Source: a virus
Lineage: Duplodnaviria; Heunggongvirae; Uroviricota; Caudoviricetes
Reading direction: 5' to 3' (one strand)
IMG/VR virus record: IMGVR_UViG_3300028888_000058
Location: 1 to 39,059 of that record
Length of the DNA stretch: 39,059 bases
The position numbers and the translations under genes were made by a program. Under the pieces are notes generated by a model that did not search any database, had not been told where the DNA came from, and worked only from the letters and a program-made list of their open reading frames with translations. Every line of letters begins with the position of its first letter. Position 1 is the first letter of the stretch. Positions 1 to 34,525 of this stretch are shown here, in pieces.

Positions 1-1014
1 GCAAAACGTGCACTTGAAACGGCAAAGAAAACATCAGCAGATATTACTGATATTCTTCTTGTAGGTGGTTCATCTCGTATGCCACAAGTTCAAGAAGCTC
101 TTAAGAATACATTCGGTGATAAGTTGAATAAGTCATCTAACTTTGATGAAGCTGTTGCACTTGGTGCTGCAATTCAGGCTAAGGCAATTGTTAATCCTGA
201 GGAATCAGATACAGTTCTTCTTGATGTAACTCCTATTACATTGGGTATTGAGGTTAATGGTAATATGATGGGTAAGCTTATTGAAGCTAACACAACAATT
301 CCTGCAAAGAAATCACAAATATTTACAACTGCTGTAGATAATCAACCTGCGGTATCAATTGTAGTTCTTCAGGGTGAACGTCCAATGAGTAAGGATAATA
401 AACAAATTGGTATGTTTAATCTTGATGGTATTGCTCCTGCTCCACGTGGTGTTCCACAGATTGAAGTAACATTTGATATTGATGCTAACGGTACATTGAC
501 TGTATCTGCTAAGGATCTTGGAACTCAAAAGGAACAACATATTACGATTAATGATTCCAATACATTATCTAAAGAAGAAATTGAACGTATTAAGAAGGAA
601 GCTGAAGAACATAAAGCCGAGGATGCTGCTAAGAAGGCAGAGTTTGATAAGAAGAATGCTGCTGAGGGATATATTTATTCTGTTGAACGTTCATTAAGCG
701 ATGATAATCTTAAGGATAAGTTTACTGATGATGAAAAGAAACAACTTCAGGATTTAGTTGACGCTGCTAAAAAAGCTATTGATGAAAAAAATGATTCTGA
801 GATGTTTGCAAAGAAAGACGAACTTGAGAAAGTTTATAATCCTATCATCAGTCGTATCTATCAAGAGAATATGCCTAAGGATGCAAATGGAAATCCTCAA
901 GTAGATCCAAATATGTTCAATAATATGTTTGGTGGAAACAACGGAGCATCTGGAGATAATCCATTTGGTGGAAATCCATTCCAAGCTGGAACTCCGTTCA
1001 CAGAAACAAAATAA
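1..1014 (+). CDS. dnaK: DnaK/Hsp70 chaperone, 5'-truncated by window edge
   Basis: Frame open from base 1 (AKRALE...[15 protein letters not shown]); [39 protein letters not shown] motifs. Confidence 0.97.
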
Positions 1015-1024
1015 AACTCTTAAC

Positions 1025-1079
1025 GAGACTCTCATTTGAGAATCTCCAAAATAAATATATTCAATAAATAATTGGAGGT
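1025..1079 (+). promoter_or_regulatory. Two mutually exclusive hairpins in hsp20 leader; one occludes SD GGAGG (1074-1078)
   Basis: 1025-1046 gagactctca/gagaatctc hairpin; 1042-1049 atctccaa pairs with 1072-1079 ttggaggt. Confidence 0.45.
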
Positions 1080-1086
1080 AATTATT

Positions 1087-1521
1087 ATGACAAACGCTTT
1101 AGATTTTTTTGGTGCAAAAGATTTATTTGATTTTAGTTTTAATCCTATTAAAACTTTCTTCGGTGATTTTGTTCCATTTAACTTTACCAATTCCCCAAAG
1201 GTTAATGTAAAGGAAACTGATAAAGCTTATGAAATAGAAATTGCCAATCCTGGATTTGGAAAAGATGATACCAAGATTGAAATTAAAAATGGTATTATCA
1301 GTGTAAGTATGACTAATGAATATCAAGAAGGACCAGAAGATGAAAAATATCATGTCCAACAATGGAGTAAGTCATCTTATAATGAATCTTGGAATATTCC
1401 AGAAAATGTAATTGAAGAACAGATTAGTGCTAAACATGATAATGGAGTTCTTACAATTACATTACCTAAGAAAGAGGTGGAACAAAAACAGATTGAATCT
1501 AGGACAATTAAAATTGAATAA
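1087..1521 (+). CDS. hsp20: Small heat-shock protein (Hsp20/alpha-crystallin family)
   Basis: PKVNVKETDKAYEIEIANPG and ISAKHDNGVLTITLPKK motifs; start moved to ATG 1087, 8 nt after GGAGG. Confidence 0.95.
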   Translation: MTNALDFFGAKDLFDFSFNPIKTFFGDFVPFNFTNSPKVNVKETDKAYEIEIANPGFGKDDTKIEIKNGIISVSMTNEYQEGPEDEKYHVQQWSKSSYNESWNIPENVIEEQISAKHDNGVLTITLPKKEVEQKQIESRTIKIE

Positions 1522-1530
1522 AGAGTTGCT

Positions 1531-1564
1531 TGGGATTGGATCTCGAGATCCAATCCCATTTTTT
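1531..1564 (+). terminator. Intrinsic terminator (perfect 28-bp palindrome + T tract)
   Basis: tgggattggatctc|gagatccaatccca followed by tttttt. Confidence 0.9.
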
Positions 1565-1586
1565 ATAAAAATTATATTGATAAAAT

Positions 1587-1988
1587 ATGACACCAACAGA
1601 ATTAATAATACTTGAACGTAATGATATTCGTTCAGATAAATTTGCTGCTGCCGCAATATCTTATATTTATAAAGCATTTGGTGATATTATTCGTTCAAAA
1701 GAAATATGGCCATTTTCAAATAAAGTAAATTTAGGATGGCAGAATTCTAAAGGAACAGAACAAGACTGTTTAGATGCAATGAATTTTCTTACAAGAGCAT
1801 TAGAGAAATATGAATTAGAATTAGAAGAAGAAACTAATAAGACTAATTTATCTGGAGATGACTTTATTAAGAAACTTAGATACTTGTTAAATAATATAAG
1901 TAATGAGGTTAAAATAGCAAATGAAACTTCAGATAATATTAATGCTACATCAAATAATGTTGAAGAAGAAATTAATAAGTTGTCATAA
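1587..1988 (+). CDS. Hypothetical protein
   Basis: 133-aa ORF filling the gap between hsp20 and dnaJ. Confidence 0.8.
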   Translation: MTPTELIILERNDIRSDKFAAAAISYIYKAFGDIIRSKEIWPFSNKVNLGWQNSKGTEQDCLDAMNFLTRALEKYELELEEETNKTNLSGDDFIKKLRYLLNNISNEVKIANETSDNINATSNNVEEEINKLS

Positions 1989-2000
1989 TAGGTTTTAATT

Positions 2001-3083
2001 ATGAATAGTAAGAATTTATATGATATATTAGGAGTTTCTAATACTGCTTCTGAGGATGAAATTAAAAAGGCTTACAAGAAATTAGCTATTAGATATCATC
2101 CTGATAGACAAGGTGGAAAATCCGATAAAGAAAAACAAGAAGCTGAAGAAAAGTTCAAAGAAATAGGAGCAGCATATGCGATATTAAGTGATCCAAATAA
2201 ACGTCAACGTTATGATGCTTATGGTACTGTTGATGAAGATATGATGGCTGGTACTGGCTTTGACATTGGTGATTTATTTAAGCATATGATGGGTGGTTTT
2301 GGTGGATTTGAAAGTTTCTTTGGAAACCGTGGAGGATTCAGACAAGAATACCCAGAACAAGCAAAATCAATTCAAGTAAACATCCCATTAAATATTGAAC
2401 AGATATTTACTGGTTATTCACATGAAATTGAATATGATGCAGATTATAGATGCTCAGAATGTCATGGATCTGGTGGCACAGGGGTAGAATTATGTCCACA
2501 CTGTCATGGCACTGGTGTTATAACTAGAACACAACAATCAGGATTTGGAATTATACAGCATCAATCACCATGTCCATATTGTGGCGGCACTGGAAAAACA
2601 ATAAAGAATAAATGTTCTAAATGCAACGGCACTGGTATTATAAGAGGCAAAAAGAAATGTAAGATTGAATTTAGACCTGGAGTAGAAAATGGTGATTATA
2701 AAGTTTATCAAGGATACGGTAATGAAGGTAAAGATTCAAGAACACAAAATGGAAATCTAATAGCAGTTCCTGTTTATAATATTGATGAAACAAAATATAA
2801 GATAACAGATAGAGCTGTTTATGAATTGATTGAAGTTTCATATTATGACTGCATATTAGGAGCTGAAATAAAACATAAATTACCAAATGGAAAAGAAGTA
2901 ACTGTTAAGATTCCTGAATATTCTAAAGATGGTACACAGATTGTATTGAAAGGTGAAGGAATTAAATTACAAAATAATTATGGATATGGCAATTACATAT
3001 TTATTATAAAGCCTAAGATGCCAACATATATTAAAGCAGAAGAAAAGGAATTACTTAAAAAGATTAAAAATTTTAATAAATAA
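2001..3083 (+). CDS. dnaJ: DnaJ/Hsp40 co-chaperone, class A
   Basis: J domain with HPD, G/F-rich linker, four CxxCxGxG zinc-finger repeats, C-terminal domain. Confidence 0.97.
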   Translation: MNSKNLYDILGVSNTASEDEIKKAYKKLAIRYHPDRQGGKSDKEKQEAEEKFKEIGAAYAILSDPNKRQRYDAYGTVDEDMMAGTGFDIGDLFKHMMGGFGGFESFFGNRGGFRQEYPEQAKSIQVNIPLNIEQIFTGYSHEIEYDADYRCSECHGSGGTGVELCPHCHGTGVITRTQQSGFGIIQHQSPCPYCGGTGKTIKNKCSKCNGTGIIRGKKKCKIEFRPGVENGDYKVYQGYGNEGKDSRTQNGNLIAVPVYNIDETKYKITDRAVYELIEVSYYDCILGAEIKHKLPNGKEVTVKIPEYSKDGTQIVLKGEGIKLQNNYGYGNYIFIIKPKMPTYIKAEEKELLKKIKNFNK

Positions 3084-9519: not shown

Positions 9520-10968
9520 ATGAGTAAATTCAATTCCACAAAGAAGAGTACTGATTTGAAAAAGAATCAGATTAGTGTTGGTGAAATCGCAGGCCGCGTT
9601 ACAAACGCTGCAGCTGCACAGTCAAACATCCAATTACTTCGTAGAGCAGTTCTTGCTAACTTGCTTTGGGAGAACATTGCATATATGGATGGTCAGAAGG
9701 TTGTAGATGAGATTGTTCGTCTTGTACCTATCTGTGATCCAAAGGATGTTGCAAATCTTACAATTGAGGCTCGTGTTATGCAGAAGCTTCGTCATACACC
9801 TTTGTTCCTTGCTGTTCAGATGTGTAAGCATGAAGAGACACGTCCTTATGTTAAGGATGTACTTCCAAAAATTATCACTCGTGCCGACATGTTAACAGAC
9901 TTTATGGCACTTTATTGGATGGATGGTAAATGTCCTATCTGTAATGCTGCTAAGAAGGGTCTTGCTGAGGCATTCCATAACTTTAAGGAGTACCACTTTG
10001 CAAAGTATGACCGTGATGCTGAAATTAAGCTTCGTGATGTAATGTTCATGGTTCGTCCAAAGCCAACAACACAGCTTGAGGCAGTTCTTTATAAGAAGAT
10101 TGCTGACCGTACACTTGAGACACCAGAGACTTGGGAGGTATTACTTTCAAATGCTCACACAAACGAAGAGAAATCTGCTGTTTGGGAGAAGCTTATCAAT
10201 GAGGGTAAGATTGGTGGTAAGGCTATGCTTATGAACCTTCGTAACATGCAGACTGCTGGTGTACCACGTCCAGTTATTGAGAAGGGTCTTAAAGAGCTTA
10301 AGGGCGCAATGCTACTTCCACTTGACTTCTTAAAGGCAATGCGTATGTGTTCTGGTTTCGACCGCGAAATTGAGGATGCTATGCTTAAGACTTACGAGAA
10401 TCTACCTAAGCTTCCAGGTAAGACATTGTTTATCGTAGACGTTTCAGGTTCTATGGGTTCAATCACAAGTTCAGGTTCAATATTCAGCCGTATGGACCAG
10501 GCTGCTGCGATGGCGATGCTTGCGGCTAACCAGTGTGAGGACTTCGAGCTTGTATGTACAGCTGGTGATGACTGGTCACGTACAGAGAGACATGAATACA
10601 TTAAGTATCCTTCTAAGGGATTTAAGATGTTCCAGGACATCAATTCTATGTACCATAAGTTAGGCGGTGGTGGTATCTTTACATATCAGTGTATTGAGAA
10701 ACTTCGTAAGCAACTTGGTGACAAGATTCATGATTATGCTCGTATAATCGTATTCTCAGACTCACAGGATATCGATGTATCACACGGTAGCACAAATAAG
10801 CCACGTCCATTTGGTAAGTACAACTACATTTGTGACGTATCTGCTCATACTCACGGTATTAACTATAAGGGTGTATGGACTGCTGAGATCTCAGGTTGGT
10901 CAGAGCACTTCTTAACTTATATCGCTGCATTTGAAGGTATTGAGAATCAGTTCGCTGATTTGAACTAA
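9520..10968 (+). CDS. TROVE/vWA domain RNA-binding protein (Ro60/Rsr family)
   Basis: LRRAVLANLLWE, LRHTPL, FAKYDR, TPETWEV, LMNLRNM, vWA MIDAS IVDVSGSM and VFSDSQ; AAGGAG SD upstream. Confidence 0.92.
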   Translation: MSKFNSTKKSTDLKKNQISVGEIAGRVTNAAAAQSNIQLLRRAVLANLLWENIAYMDGQKVVDEIVRLVPICDPKDVANLTIEARVMQKLRHTPLFLAVQMCKHEETRPYVKDVLPKIITRADMLTDFMALYWMDGKCPICNAAKKGLAEAFHNFKEYHFAKYDRDAEIKLRDVMFMVRPKPTTQLEAVLYKKIADRTLETPETWEVLLSNAHTNEEKSAVWEKLINEGKIGGKAMLMNLRNMQTAGVPRPVIEKGLKELKGAMLLPLDFLKAMRMCSGFDREIEDAMLKTYENLPKLPGKTLFIVDVSGSMGSITSSGSIFSRMDQAAAMAMLAANQCEDFELVCTAGDDWSRTERHEYIKYPSKGFKMFQDINSMYHKLGGGGIFTYQCIEKLRKQLGDKIHDYARIIVFSDSQDIDVSHGSTNKPRPFGKYNYICDVSAHTHGINYKGVWTAEISGWSEHFLTYIAAFEGIENQFADLN

Positions 10969-12970: not shown

Positions 12971-13105
12971 ATGACTTTAGATGAAGCTATTGAACATTGT
13001 TATGAAATAGTCAATAATAAATGTAAAAACTATGAATGTCGTATGGATCACAAACAGTTAGCAAAATGGTTGACTGAACTTAAAAAATATAGGGAAGCAT
13101 TATAG
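12971..13105 (+). CDS. Hypothetical phage protein (44 aa, not in ORF track)
   Basis: MTLDEAIEHC...HKQLAKWLTELKKYR, a recurrent phage motif (recalled); ends in TAG inside terminator. Confidence 0.7.
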   Translation: MTLDEAIEHCYEIVNNKCKNYECRMDHKQLAKWLTELKKYREAL

Positions 13106-13112
13106 CTTCCCT
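13091..13112. terminator. Bidirectional terminator between convergent genes
   Basis: agggaagc-attata-gcttccct. Confidence 0.8.
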
Positions 13113-13115
13113 TAT

Positions 13116-13667
13116 TTATTTACCCATTATTTCATTATATTTTTTTAGGTCTTCTTCATCAGCTTTATAATAAGGTTCCCAGATTTTCATTCGTATATCT
13201 TCAAGTTTTGCAAGTTCTGGTTGTATTTTCTTAATCTTATTTTTTAATTGTTCAATTTCATCAGATATCTTATTGAACTGTTCTCCATATTCTTGAGCTT
13301 TTTCTTCACCTTCTTTAAATTTGCCATCTGCATAAAGACCACCAACTTCTTCATCTTGGTCAATTTGTAATTGTCTATAATTACGTTTAGCATCTTTAAG
13401 ATCCTGTTCGTAACCCCAAAGTTCATCTTCAAGTTTTTCTATCTTTTTATTGATATCTTTTTCTTGGTCTTTACATTTATTATATAACTGACGAACTTTT
13501 TCATGGTTCTTTTCATAAGTTTCCCATTTAAGTTTTTCAAGTTCAGGATCTGGATCATCTACCCAAAGAGTTACGATTTCACCAGTATCTTCATCAACGA
13601 AATCTTCATAATGGCCGTTTTTGCCATCTTTTTCTGATTCTAATATGTATTGTTTAAAATCTTTCAT
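13116..13667 (-). CDS. Coiled-coil protein with capsid-targeting-like leader and RpoB-like peptide; putative head-internal protein
   Basis: MKDFKQYILE|S leader; EDFVDEDTGEIVT; long heptad repeats. Confidence 0.85.
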   Translation of the reverse strand: MKDFKQYILESEKDGKNGHYEDFVDEDTGEIVTLWVDDPDPELEKLKWETYEKNHEKVRQLYNKCKDQEKDINKKIEKLEDELWGYEQDLKDAKRNYRQLQIDQDEEVGGLYADGKFKEGEEKAQEYGEQFNKISDEIEQLKNKIKKIQPELAKLEDIRMKIWEPYYKADEEDLKKYNEIMGK

Positions 13668-13933: not shown

Positions 13934-13985
13934 ATTGACTATTTTATATTTATATATTAAAAATAATATTTTATACTAAATGAAA

Positions 13986-16823: not shown

Positions 16824-16844
16824 GTATATTTGATAAGATACAAT

Positions 16845-17774
16845 ATGATACTTAGTATTGATTTTAGAACAGATATTCCAGCATTTTATTCTGACTGGTT
16901 AATTAATAGATTTAATGAAGGATTTGTAATGTTTAGAAATCCTGCTGCCCCTAATATGGTTCATAAGATCATATTAGACAATAAGCATATAGAAGGAATT
17001 ATGTGGTGTTCAAAAGATTATCTTCCAATACTTCATGACTTAAAGAATATCACAGATAAATTTCCAAGTATATTTCATTACACAATAACAGGCTACGGAA
17101 AAGATATTGAACCTGGAGTACCAAGTTTTGAACAATCTATTTATACATTCAAAGAACTTTCTCAAAGATATGGAAAAGAAAAAGTAATATGGAGATTTGA
17201 CCCTATCTTTTATTGTAAAGACTTTGAAGAAGTTCAGACACTTGAAAGATTTGAAAATATATGCAAAGAGTTACATAATTATACAGATAGAGTTGTAGTC
17301 AATTTTGTATCTCCTTATGAAAAAGTCAAAAGACATTTACCAGAGATGATTGAACTTAATAATATTCAAAAGAAAGTTCTTATAATGAATATGCTTGATA
17401 TTTGCAATAGATATGATTTCAAATTACAGACATGTGGTAATGGTTTACAATTCAAAGATTTAGAAGGTGTTGAAGTTACAGGATGCCTCGATGAACATGC
17501 TTTGAATTTAATGGGAATCTATCCTAAGCAAAATAGAACAGAAATGGCATGGGGATGCTTATGTTATCCAAATACGTGCATAGGTGTTTATAATACTTGT
17601 CTTCATAAATGCAAATATTGTTATGCATCAGCAGATTTTGATAAATGTGATGAGAACTTTAAAATACATGATCCAAAGTCTCCATTATTGATTAGCAATA
17701 TAAAACCAACTGATACAATAATTGAAATGAAGCCTAAATTATTAAATACAAATCAACTTAAATTGAATTTTTAA
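16845..17774 (+). CDS. DUF1848-family radical-SAM-like protein (spore-photoproduct-lyase related)
   Basis: RTDIPAFYSDWL, YTITGYGKDIEPGVP, VIWRFDPI, C-terminal GVYNTCLHKCKYCYA (CX3CX2C); ATG 16845 preferred. Confidence 0.88.
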   Translation: MILSIDFRTDIPAFYSDWLINRFNEGFVMFRNPAAPNMVHKIILDNKHIEGIMWCSKDYLPILHDLKNITDKFPSIFHYTITGYGKDIEPGVPSFEQSIYTFKELSQRYGKEKVIWRFDPIFYCKDFEEVQTLERFENICKELHNYTDRVVVNFVSPYEKVKRHLPEMIELNNIQKKVLIMNMLDICNRYDFKLQTCGNGLQFKDLEGVEVTGCLDEHALNLMGIYPKQNRTEMAWGCLCYPNTCIGVYNTCLHKCKYCYASADFDKCDENFKIHDPKSPLLISNIKPTDTIIEMKPKLLNTNQLKLNF

Positions 17775-23883: not shown

Positions 23884-24717
23884 ATGGGAAAGCAAAAAAG
23901 AAGTGAGAACACTTATCAGAAGATTAACACAATCTTCATGCGTGATGCAAAGAATGTAATTATGCCGTATGAGCCATTTGTTGAGCCAGAATTTGAATAC
24001 TTACGTGGTCTTAAGTGGCGTGGCGAATGCAAAATTGATGGAACTAATATGCGTATTGAAGTTACTAAGGAAATTGTTCCTTCAGAAACAAGTGTTGTGC
24101 CTGAAGTTGCAGGTGTAAAGTTTAATGTACGTTATGCAGGTAAGACTGATAATGCACAGATTCCACCAAAGTTGCTTAAATTCATGGAAGAGAATTATCC
24201 TAAGGAGAAAGTATTGGCTTCTCTTGGACTTAAGGATTTTATTCCCGTTGAAGAGTGGGAAACAGACCACAACTGGTTAGAGTATGACCAAATTCCTAAT
24301 ATCTATACTATCTATGGTGAGGGCTATGGAGCAGGTATTCAGAAGGCTGGTGGTAACTATATTAAAAATGGTGTAGGATTTATTGTATTTGATGTTAAGG
24401 TAAATGATATCTATCTTAAGACTGATGCTCGTGATGAGATCGCAACAAAGCTTGGTGCTCCTATTGTTCCATTGATGGGTTACTTTACTCTTGATGAGGC
24501 AATTGATTTTGTTCGTAAGGGATTTAAGACTAGTCTTTGGGATAATAAGGATTTCATTGAGGAAGGTCTTGTACTTCGTACTGACTTGGGCCTTCGTAAC
24601 CGTATGGGCAAACGTTTGATTGTAAAAGTCAAGTATGAGGATTTCCAAAAGTATCGTGCAGTTTATGGTACTGATGGGCCTGTAGAACAAGAAAAGAACA
24701 AAAATTATGAAAAATAA
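23884..24717 (+). CDS. ATP-dependent RNA ligase, Rnl2-like
   Basis: Motif I ECKIDGTN, IYGEGYG, FIVFDV, EEGLVLR, IVKVK. Confidence 0.88.
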   Translation: MGKQKRSENTYQKINTIFMRDAKNVIMPYEPFVEPEFEYLRGLKWRGECKIDGTNMRIEVTKEIVPSETSVVPEVAGVKFNVRYAGKTDNAQIPPKLLKFMEENYPKEKVLASLGLKDFIPVEEWETDHNWLEYDQIPNIYTIYGEGYGAGIQKAGGNYIKNGVGFIVFDVKVNDIYLKTDARDEIATKLGAPIVPLMGYFTLDEAIDFVRKGFKTSLWDNKDFIEEGLVLRTDLGLRNRMGKRLIVKVKYEDFQKYRAVYGTDGPVEQEKNKNYEK

Positions 24718-33892: not shown

Positions 33893-34525
33893 ATGAAACA
33901 TATAAACAACTTCATATTAGAAAAACTAATCATAAATAAGAATACCAAAATAGATAAGTATCATTATCATCCTAAAGATAAAGATGAATTAAAAGAACTA
34001 GTGGATAAACTTATTGAAGAACGTGGAAACGAAGCAGACCTTAATGATATAGATACATCAAAAATAACTGATATGTCATATTTATTTTCTGATTCTAAAT
34101 TTAATGGAGATATATCCGAATGGGATGTAAGTAATGTTACTAAGATTAAAGGTATGTTCTTTAAATCTAAGTTTACAAGTGAAAATAGTGACATTTCTAA
34201 ATGGGATGTAAGTAATGTAACTAGTATGTTGGGAATGTTTGCTGATTCTGAATTTAATGGAGATATATCTAATTGGAATGTAAGTAATGTCAGTGAAATG
34301 AATTATATGTTTTTAGAATCTGAATTTACAGGTGAAAATGGAGATATATCAAAATGGGATGTAAGTAATGTTACAGATATGGAGGGGATGTTTAGAAAAT
34401 CTAAATTTAATGGTGACATATCAAAATGGGATGTAAGCAAGGTAAGAGATATGTATAATATGTTTGATAATTCTCCTTTGGAAAAAAATCCACCTAAATG
34501 GTATATAAAATGGTCAGTAAATTGA
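33893..34525 (+). CDS. BspA-like/DUF285 repeat protein with capsid-targeting-like leader
   Basis: Five (FNG)DISxW(D/N)VSxV repeats, alternating 25/22-aa spacing; MKHINNFILE leader. Confidence 0.88.
   Translation: MKHINNFILEKLIINKNTKIDKYHYHPKDKDELKELVDKLIEERGNEADLNDIDTSKITDMSYLFSDSKFNGDISEWDVSNVTKIKGMFFKSKFTSENSDISKWDVSNVTSMLGMFADSEFNGDISNWNVSNVSEMNYMFLESEFTGENGDISKWDVSNVTDMEGMFRKSKFNGDISKWDVSKVRDMYNMFDNSPLEKNPPKWYIKWSVN

Follow-up and report, generated by a model that had tools for sequence, protein, structure and literature searches.

A megaphage protein with a T4-like capsid-targeting tag and an RpoB-like hairpin on a predicted coiled coil

The gene described here, P0001, lies on the minus strand at positions 13116–13667 of a window of 39,059 nucleotides, the whole stretch of viral DNA that was analysed. 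According to the ORF list and its translation, it encodes an acidic protein of 183 amino acids with a pI of 4.7. The reading frame is a real gene, as the earlier note had taken it to be: its product is a member of a conserved family. The placement on the minus strand is likewise borne out, and the flanking genes to either side run on the plus strand. Upstream of P0001, on the same strand, is an ORF of 87 amino acids, P0002 (13670–13933), which begins with the tag MKDLITILNE followed by S. Directly 3′ of the P0001 stop codon there is a hairpin resembling a bidirectional intrinsic terminator, with an 8-bp stem and T-runs on both strands (13091–13112). The gene had also been proposed to be under the control of a late promoter with a TATAAATA box. 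Such a box is present 13 nt upstream of the P0002 start (13947–13954, minus strand), where it precedes P0002 and not P0001; the window contains 23 copies where 19.7 would be expected, with no strand bias, and the promoter role is not supported. The Bacteroidota −33/−7 promoter pattern is not enriched in the window, with 5 copies against 2.6 expected. The G+C content of the window is 22–36%. The window also encodes DnaK (its C-terminal part), DnaJ, a Ro60-like protein with TROVE and VWA domains, a DUF1848 protein and an RNA ligase (1–3083, 9520–10968, 16830–17774 and 23884–24717), besides many small unknown genes.

The P0001 family comprises 135 clusters at 90% identity in a word-indexed search and 61 representatives at 50% identity in an exhaustive HMMER search. 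Its members come from metagenomic sources throughout, and neither the DNA of the window nor the P0001 protein was found among the GenBank phages. A 99%-identical copy is located on an IMG/VR contig of 435,272 bp, a 57%-identical copy on a 158-kb contig (relative G001), and some other members on phage contigs of 137–460 kb, those in ENA having 137 and 460 kb. Because copies of P0001 sit on the 435,272-bp, 137-kb and 460-kb contigs, the virus that bears it is a megaphage of roughly 435 kb, from gut or rumen. Its host is probably a member of the Bacteroidota, as judged from sequence features. An SD-like motif precedes just 4 of the 59 genes of the window, in keeping with the Bacteroidetes, in which SD motifs are known not to be used (PMC7797042), and the copy of an RpoB segment discussed below indicates the same phylum. 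Some relatives of phrog_35807, a further phage family with such a copy, have sources named as Bacteroides and Parabacteroides, and these were counted toward the same host.

Alignments of the family show three conserved parts, namely the first ten residues, the segment DGKNGHYEDFVDEDTGEIVTLWVxDPDPE, and a block at about residues 95–133. The hairpin is the most conserved segment of the family, with D25, T28, G29 and E30 conserved at 90% or more across 96 sequences whose overall identity falls to about 19–30%; the loss of this motif in phage homologues, which the earlier note had named as evidence against its proposal, is thus not what the alignments show. In some distant members the hairpin is degenerate, so that exact mimicry is not kept universally. 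The third block, residues 95–133 (13269–13385, minus strand), is the tip region, in which the alignments single out R98, L100, D103, E105, E107, G109, Y112, G115, A124, Q125, Y127, G128, F131 and N132. A Pfam search with the longer members of the family detected no fused domain.

The AlphaFold2 model of P0001, calculated from the 96 sequences, has a mean pLDDT of 88. It contains two long helices, helix 1 at residues 41–113 (13329–13547, minus strand; pLDDT 84–98) and helix 2 at residues 117–181 (13125–13319, minus strand), and the body of the protein is confidently predicted to be an antiparallel helical hairpin, about 100 Å long, with the conserved block at its tip. The two helices had been expected from the sequence, with QIDQDEEVGG as the acidic turn between them. 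The helices are found in the model; the turn, in contrast, consists of only three residues, 114–116, and the conserved acidic stretch, IDQ(D/E)EEVG in the family, belongs to helix 1, just before the turn. Foldseek searches of PDB and BFVD returned just generic long coiled-coil hairpins, all with E > 0.009, Pfam and PHROGs gave sub-threshold coiled-coil noise alone, and a feature search of the ESM Atlas gave no usable match for P0001. With generic coiled coils as the only matches in Pfam and Foldseek, the suggested likeness to Gre and DksA is not upheld. Prediction of a complex between mature P0001 and a fragment of Prevotella RpoB comprising β2 and β-i4 gave a score of 0.01, which speaks neither for nor against binding.

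The first ten residues of P0001, MKDFKQYILE (13638–13667, minus strand), resemble the capsid-targeting sequence (CTS) of T4 and end in I-x-E, an assignment based on comparison with T4 IPII and IPIII and on conservation in the family, where M1, K2, Y7 and E10 are retained. The T4-like leader seen by the earlier note is well founded: MKDFKQYILE followed by S in P0001 compares with MKTYQEFIAE followed by A in T4 IPII and IPIII (read from NC_000866), and leaders of this type are common to the neighbouring genes. In P0001, as in its neighbours, the tag ends at a site of the prohead-protease type, here I8-L9-E10 and then Ser. In T4, the CTS directs the internal proteins and Alt into the core (PMC3012670, PMC5694885), and gp21 removes the propeptide by cutting after Glu (PMC5694885). 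A protease of the gp21 type (S77) is encoded by relative G001, which is 57% identical over P0001 (PF03420, E 1.6e-13).

Three ORFs of the window are tagged: P0001, P0002 and the ORF at 33893. The last (33893–34525, plus strand) encodes a DUF285 protein that begins with MKHINNFILE, followed by KLIINKNTK. In another relative, L125, the P0001 homologue lies in a run of 15 consecutive genes of one orientation, 12 of which have a tag of the form MK[DNTH][LI]..., with I/L/V-x-E at positions 8–11, and the P0002 homologue is two genes upstream of the P0001 homologue. The tag is missing from some long relatives of P0001, and duplicated tags occur in the proteins P0060 and P0121. In the 460-kb relative L002 (9279–10004 and 10479–11378), the gene upstream of the homologue ends in a tag-like ..MISLKNYILESIQ, and in the downstream gene the tag starts five residues in. 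The tags thus appear to be located at gene junctions, and gene fusions may come about through them.

Between the tag and the helices, residues 18–37 (13557–13616, minus strand) are predicted by AlphaFold, in agreement with the alignments, to form a β-hairpin with strands at 18–24 and 31–37. By sequence and profile comparison, residues 21–30, EDFVDEDTGE (13578–13607, minus strand), are identical to the β-i4 hairpin of Bacteroidota RpoB. The RpoB-like peptide of the earlier note is present in fact: HYEDFVDEDTGEIVT, at residues 19–33, has its RpoB counterpart in NTWHEDFVDEDTGEVVSI, residues 246–263 of chain C in PDB entry 9n9p, the RNA polymerase of Flagellimonas taeanensis (Bacteroidota). With residues 8–48 as the query of a phmmer search of all PDB sequences, this β subunit, 9n9p_C, is the best match, aligned as NTWHEDFVDEDTGEVVSI, at E 0.15, and in six-frame searches with the family profile RpoB is the sole match in each of five Bacteroidota genomes (E 0.02–0.08 per genome). 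These E-values are weak, and the contiguous identity between the P0001 clade and RpoB is short, at 10 residues (11 of 14 identical). Comparisons of profiles, which provide the alignment to Bacteroidota RpoB that had been proposed as a check, give a significant match. Searched against the PDB, the hairpin profile finds Bacteroidota RpoB as its best match, with E 6.3e-5. Alignment of the phage N-terminus with an alignment of 102 RpoB segments in hhalign has a probability of 95.6%, a P value of 1.1e-8 and a score of 48.9 over 23 columns; 150 column shuffles gave a mean score of 10.5, a maximum of 22.2 and a best P value of 2e-3.

A degenerate DNA pattern for FVDEDTGE, searched in one genome per prokaryotic species, matches at least 120 loci; the context LAARVLKTWxEDFVDEDTGEVVSIERNE is found in 120 of 120 among the matches listed, nearly all of which have Bacteroidota titles. 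Among 61 genomes sampled evenly from the class to which a Flavobacterium genome belongs, 48 encode the exact 10-mer EDFVDEDTGE, once in each. In a phylum-wide sample the 8-mer is present in 73 of 301 genomes, and the matches fall on exactly every fourth genome; this regularity is tentatively taken to reflect stratified sampling, with the exact motif confined to a single stratum, the class Bacteroidia. A MAG labelled Oscillospiraceae (CAVFVD010000036.1) also encodes a typical Bacteroidota RpoB segment, probably on a mis-binned contig. The RpoB segment is located between the DRKKKLP and IYRQLRNAEPP blocks, corresponding to the flanks of E. coli β-i4, and within PF04561 (Rpb2 domain 2, lobe). β-i4, also named SI1 or dispensable region 1, is a lineage-specific insertion in RpoB that comprises between one and six BBM2 modules (Opalka et al. 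2010, PMC2939025). Judged by the profiles, the shuffles and the bridging members described below, the similarity of the P0001 hairpin to the β-i4/BBM2 module is significant. A complete BBM2 module, with hairpin, helix and closing strand as in the model of P0184 (see below), is absent from P0001: the 23 hairpin columns align, and after residue 37 the coiled coil follows.

The second PDB match of the hairpin profile is T4 UvsX, aligned as KNGWYAREFLDEETGEMI at E 0.0076, an unrelated hairpin. Because of this match, part of the motif is best taken as a recurrent hairpin signature, shared by unrelated proteins, and this is probably the explanation of the likeness to UvsX. Residues 261–280 of T4 UvsX (uvsX at L133, 3390–4562, minus strand), KNGWYAREFLDEETGEMIRE, are similar to the phage hairpin, down to the KNG prefix. 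UvsX, looked for as an intragenomic source of the hairpin, was not found in the 158-kb fragment of relative G001.

When IMG/VR was scanned for the 8-mer FVDEDTGE, 39 loci were found, two of which connect the P0001 family with RpoB. The protein P0185 and the N-terminus of an open frame of 831 residues in L149 are both distant members of the P0001 family by hhalign (98.5% probability, E 3e-15, and 98.3% probability, E 2.5e-14, respectively), with alignments of 136–139 columns that span both the hairpin and the coiled coil. Their hairpins also carry the flanks of the RpoB segment (KTWVEDFVDEDTGEVVQITRN), and L149 and a fragment of Prevotella RpoB share 21 identical residues out of 36 (58%, E 4e-10). 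Because P0185 and L149 bridge the two, the P0001 hairpin is tied to RpoB by homology and not by the bare motif; these comparisons establish, at the level of sequence, that it is homologous to the β-i4 hairpin of Bacteroidota RpoB.

The same segment is found in other phage proteins. P0184, of about 285 residues, represents the phrog_35807 family, which is unrelated to P0001; 29 of 45 residues are identical to RpoB (BLASTP, E 5e-15). In a Foldseek search, its AlphaFold model (pLDDT 70) has a single significant match, the RNA polymerase β subunit 9n9q_F, with E 1.5e-5 and 41% identity over 85 columns. The family is large, with more than 1,000 clusters, and occurs in the early/replication region of Bacteroidales temperate phages. 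Because phrog_35807 carries its own copy, Bacteroidota phages have copied this RpoB surface more than once. Proteins of this family with an N-terminal β-i4 copy were seen at L157 (3978–4853, minus strand) and on ten other contigs. Frames of 36–52 codons, possibly microprotein versions of the RpoB hairpin, encode the hairpin and a short helix, MSNIYKEDFVDEDTGEVIQMELDLDKLHKHHK..., as at L135 (13172–13282, minus strand) and on eight other contigs, all viral and 39–181 kb in length. Acidic viral proteins of 640–940 amino acids on six further contigs contain ..EIEFEFVDEDTGE.. after a (PE)n run.

Taken together, these features suggest a protein of three modules. Residues 1–10 would act as a T4-type capsid-targeting propeptide that recruits P0001 into the prohead core, by analogy with T4 IPI–III and Alt, and the gp21-type (S77) protease of the phage would then cut after Glu10. 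The mature protein would be packed alongside the DNA and injected into the host. There, residues 18–37 would display the host's near-invariant EDFVDEDTGE, homologous to the first half of the β-i4 (BBM2) insertion, on the roughly 100 Å helical hairpin predicted for residues 41–181, whose tip is the second conserved site. In this way P0001 would most likely be an early effector against the host transcription machinery. The hairpin may serve as a decoy that competes with the polymerase's own β-i4 for its binding partner; alternatively, it may dock beside β-i4 on the polymerase, with the stalk and tip making a second contact. As a whole, the model of a packaged, cleaved and injected protein that acts on host transcription through an RpoB-like hairpin is put forward tentatively, its chances being a little below even. 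Packaging and cleavage at Glu10 are inferred by analogy with T4, and the action on the transcription apparatus, as decoy or by docking, is suggested by the homology of the hairpin.

It is possible, though unlikely, that P0001 is a packaged internal protein whose hairpin is a common D-x-D-T-G-E acidic β-turn reached by convergence, and which has a target other than transcription, for example in anti-defence, as T4 IPI*, or as acidic DNA-associated cargo. T4 internal proteins are indeed diverse anti-defence proteins (PMC3012670), and such a turn would account for the match of the same profile to UvsX, for a ubiquitin-derived hairpin among the weak PDB matches, for the 8-mer in several unrelated IMG/VR proteins and for the degenerate hairpins of distant family members. 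However, the match of the bridging members to RpoB extends over 36 residues and takes in the flanks KTW..EDF and ..I.RN, the scores of shuffled columns never approach the observed one, and in bacterial genomes the 8-mer is confined to RpoB in every one of the matches listed. A structural role is improbable. In that case P0001 would belong to the core or scaffold of the prohead from which a very large T4-like capsid is made, helping to build or size the core before being cut by the protease and then lost or retained, and would be no effector. The long helical hairpin, a second I-x-E site at residue 164 and the strong conservation across megaphages, unlike that of fast-changing cargo, would suit a scaffold, as would weak coiled-coil matches to scaffold and tape-measure PHROGs; these matches, however, have E-values of 2e-4 to about 0.02, typical of any coiled coil, and phrog_73, at E 0.022, does not amount to a match to a head-scaffold family. 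Nor is the gene adjacent to those for the protease or major capsid protein: it is found among small tagged accessory genes, and in G001 the homologue, at about 64 kb, is some 67 kb away from the protease at 131 kb. A scaffold would also leave the RpoB-like hairpin unexplained.

The tag itself might not be a packaging signal but serve the gene arrays as a module for recombination or translation start, so that P0001 would act in the cytoplasm once made during infection. This fits the tag-like peptides found internally or C-terminally in fused genes, such as the 241-aa gene of L002, as well as the tags duplicated in P0060 and P0121 or missing in some relatives; yet the peptide is close to the T4 CTS in length, pattern and terminal I/L-x-E, a relative encodes a gp21-type protease, and the tag is kept at the protein level among members of about 30% identity, all of which makes this explanation quite improbable. 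Least probable of all is a secondary-channel factor of the Gre/DksA kind, with the acidic tip near the active site of the polymerase and the N-terminal hairpin at the rim, next to β-i4. E. coli β-i4 (SI1) is contacted by DksA and TraR, which counts in favour of such a factor, as do the conserved acidic residues D103, E105 and E107 near the tip. The helices of P0001, on the other hand, at about 70 residues (about 100 Å), are roughly double the coiled coils of Gre or DksA in length, the turn itself (ADGK, 113–116) is not acidic, a globular rim-binding domain is lacking, and neither Pfam nor fold searches gave a match. The packaged effector with an RpoB-derived hairpin remains the preferred reading.

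If the copies are considered together, Bacteroidota phages may have repeatedly copied the β-i4 hairpin into unrelated proteins (the P0001 family, phrog_35807 and the 37-residue microproteins) as a means of capturing or displacing whatever host factor or defence sensor recognises this surface of the RNA polymerase, with the megaphage copy delivered ready-made from the capsid at infection. This broader proposal is speculative, and in its entirety rather unlikely. The sequence insertions of Bacteroides RNA polymerase have been described as uncharacterised (PMC11685472), and our literature search found no paper connecting BBM2 modules with phage proteins. Because several unrelated phage families keep its near-invariant hairpin, the β-i4 surface is marked as functionally important, and the phage hairpin proteins offer a direct handle on the β-i4 partner.

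As in T4 IPI, IPII, IPIII and Alt, P0001 has an N-terminal tag of ten residues with the same pattern and an I-x-E end, and the T4 internal proteins are likewise encoded by small, diverse, arrayed genes in a phage with a gp21-type S77 protease, which is found here in a related phage. Beyond the tag there is no similarity: P0001 is an acidic helical hairpin that many megaphages keep in strongly conserved form, and its packaging is proposed by analogy. T4 Alt sets a precedent, being a packaged protein with an action on the host RNA polymerase at injection, and, if P0001 is packaged, this idea of a pre-made protein would be extended to protein mimicry in gut megaphages. With β-i4 of RpoB, P0001 shares 10 identical residues, 23 profile-similar columns and a helix after the hairpin; in contrast to β-i4, which belongs to a polymerase subunit, it retains no more than the hairpin half, joined here to a coiled coil. 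The phrog_35807 protein P0184 is, like P0001, a phage protein with the same RpoB segment and from the same host phylum, whereas its copy is longer (about 85 aligned residues) and is followed by two α/β domains, with neither tag nor coiled coil, in the early/replication region of temperate phages. In Gre, DksA and TraR, too, conserved acidic residues lie close to the tip of a coiled-coil hairpin, although P0001 matches them in neither sequence nor fold, has helices about twice as long and lacks a globular or zinc-finger domain. Finally, P0001 resembles the DNA mimic Ocr of T7 in being an acidic phage protein proposed to imitate a surface encountered in the host, with the difference that the object imitated would be a protein hairpin of the RNA polymerase and not DNA.
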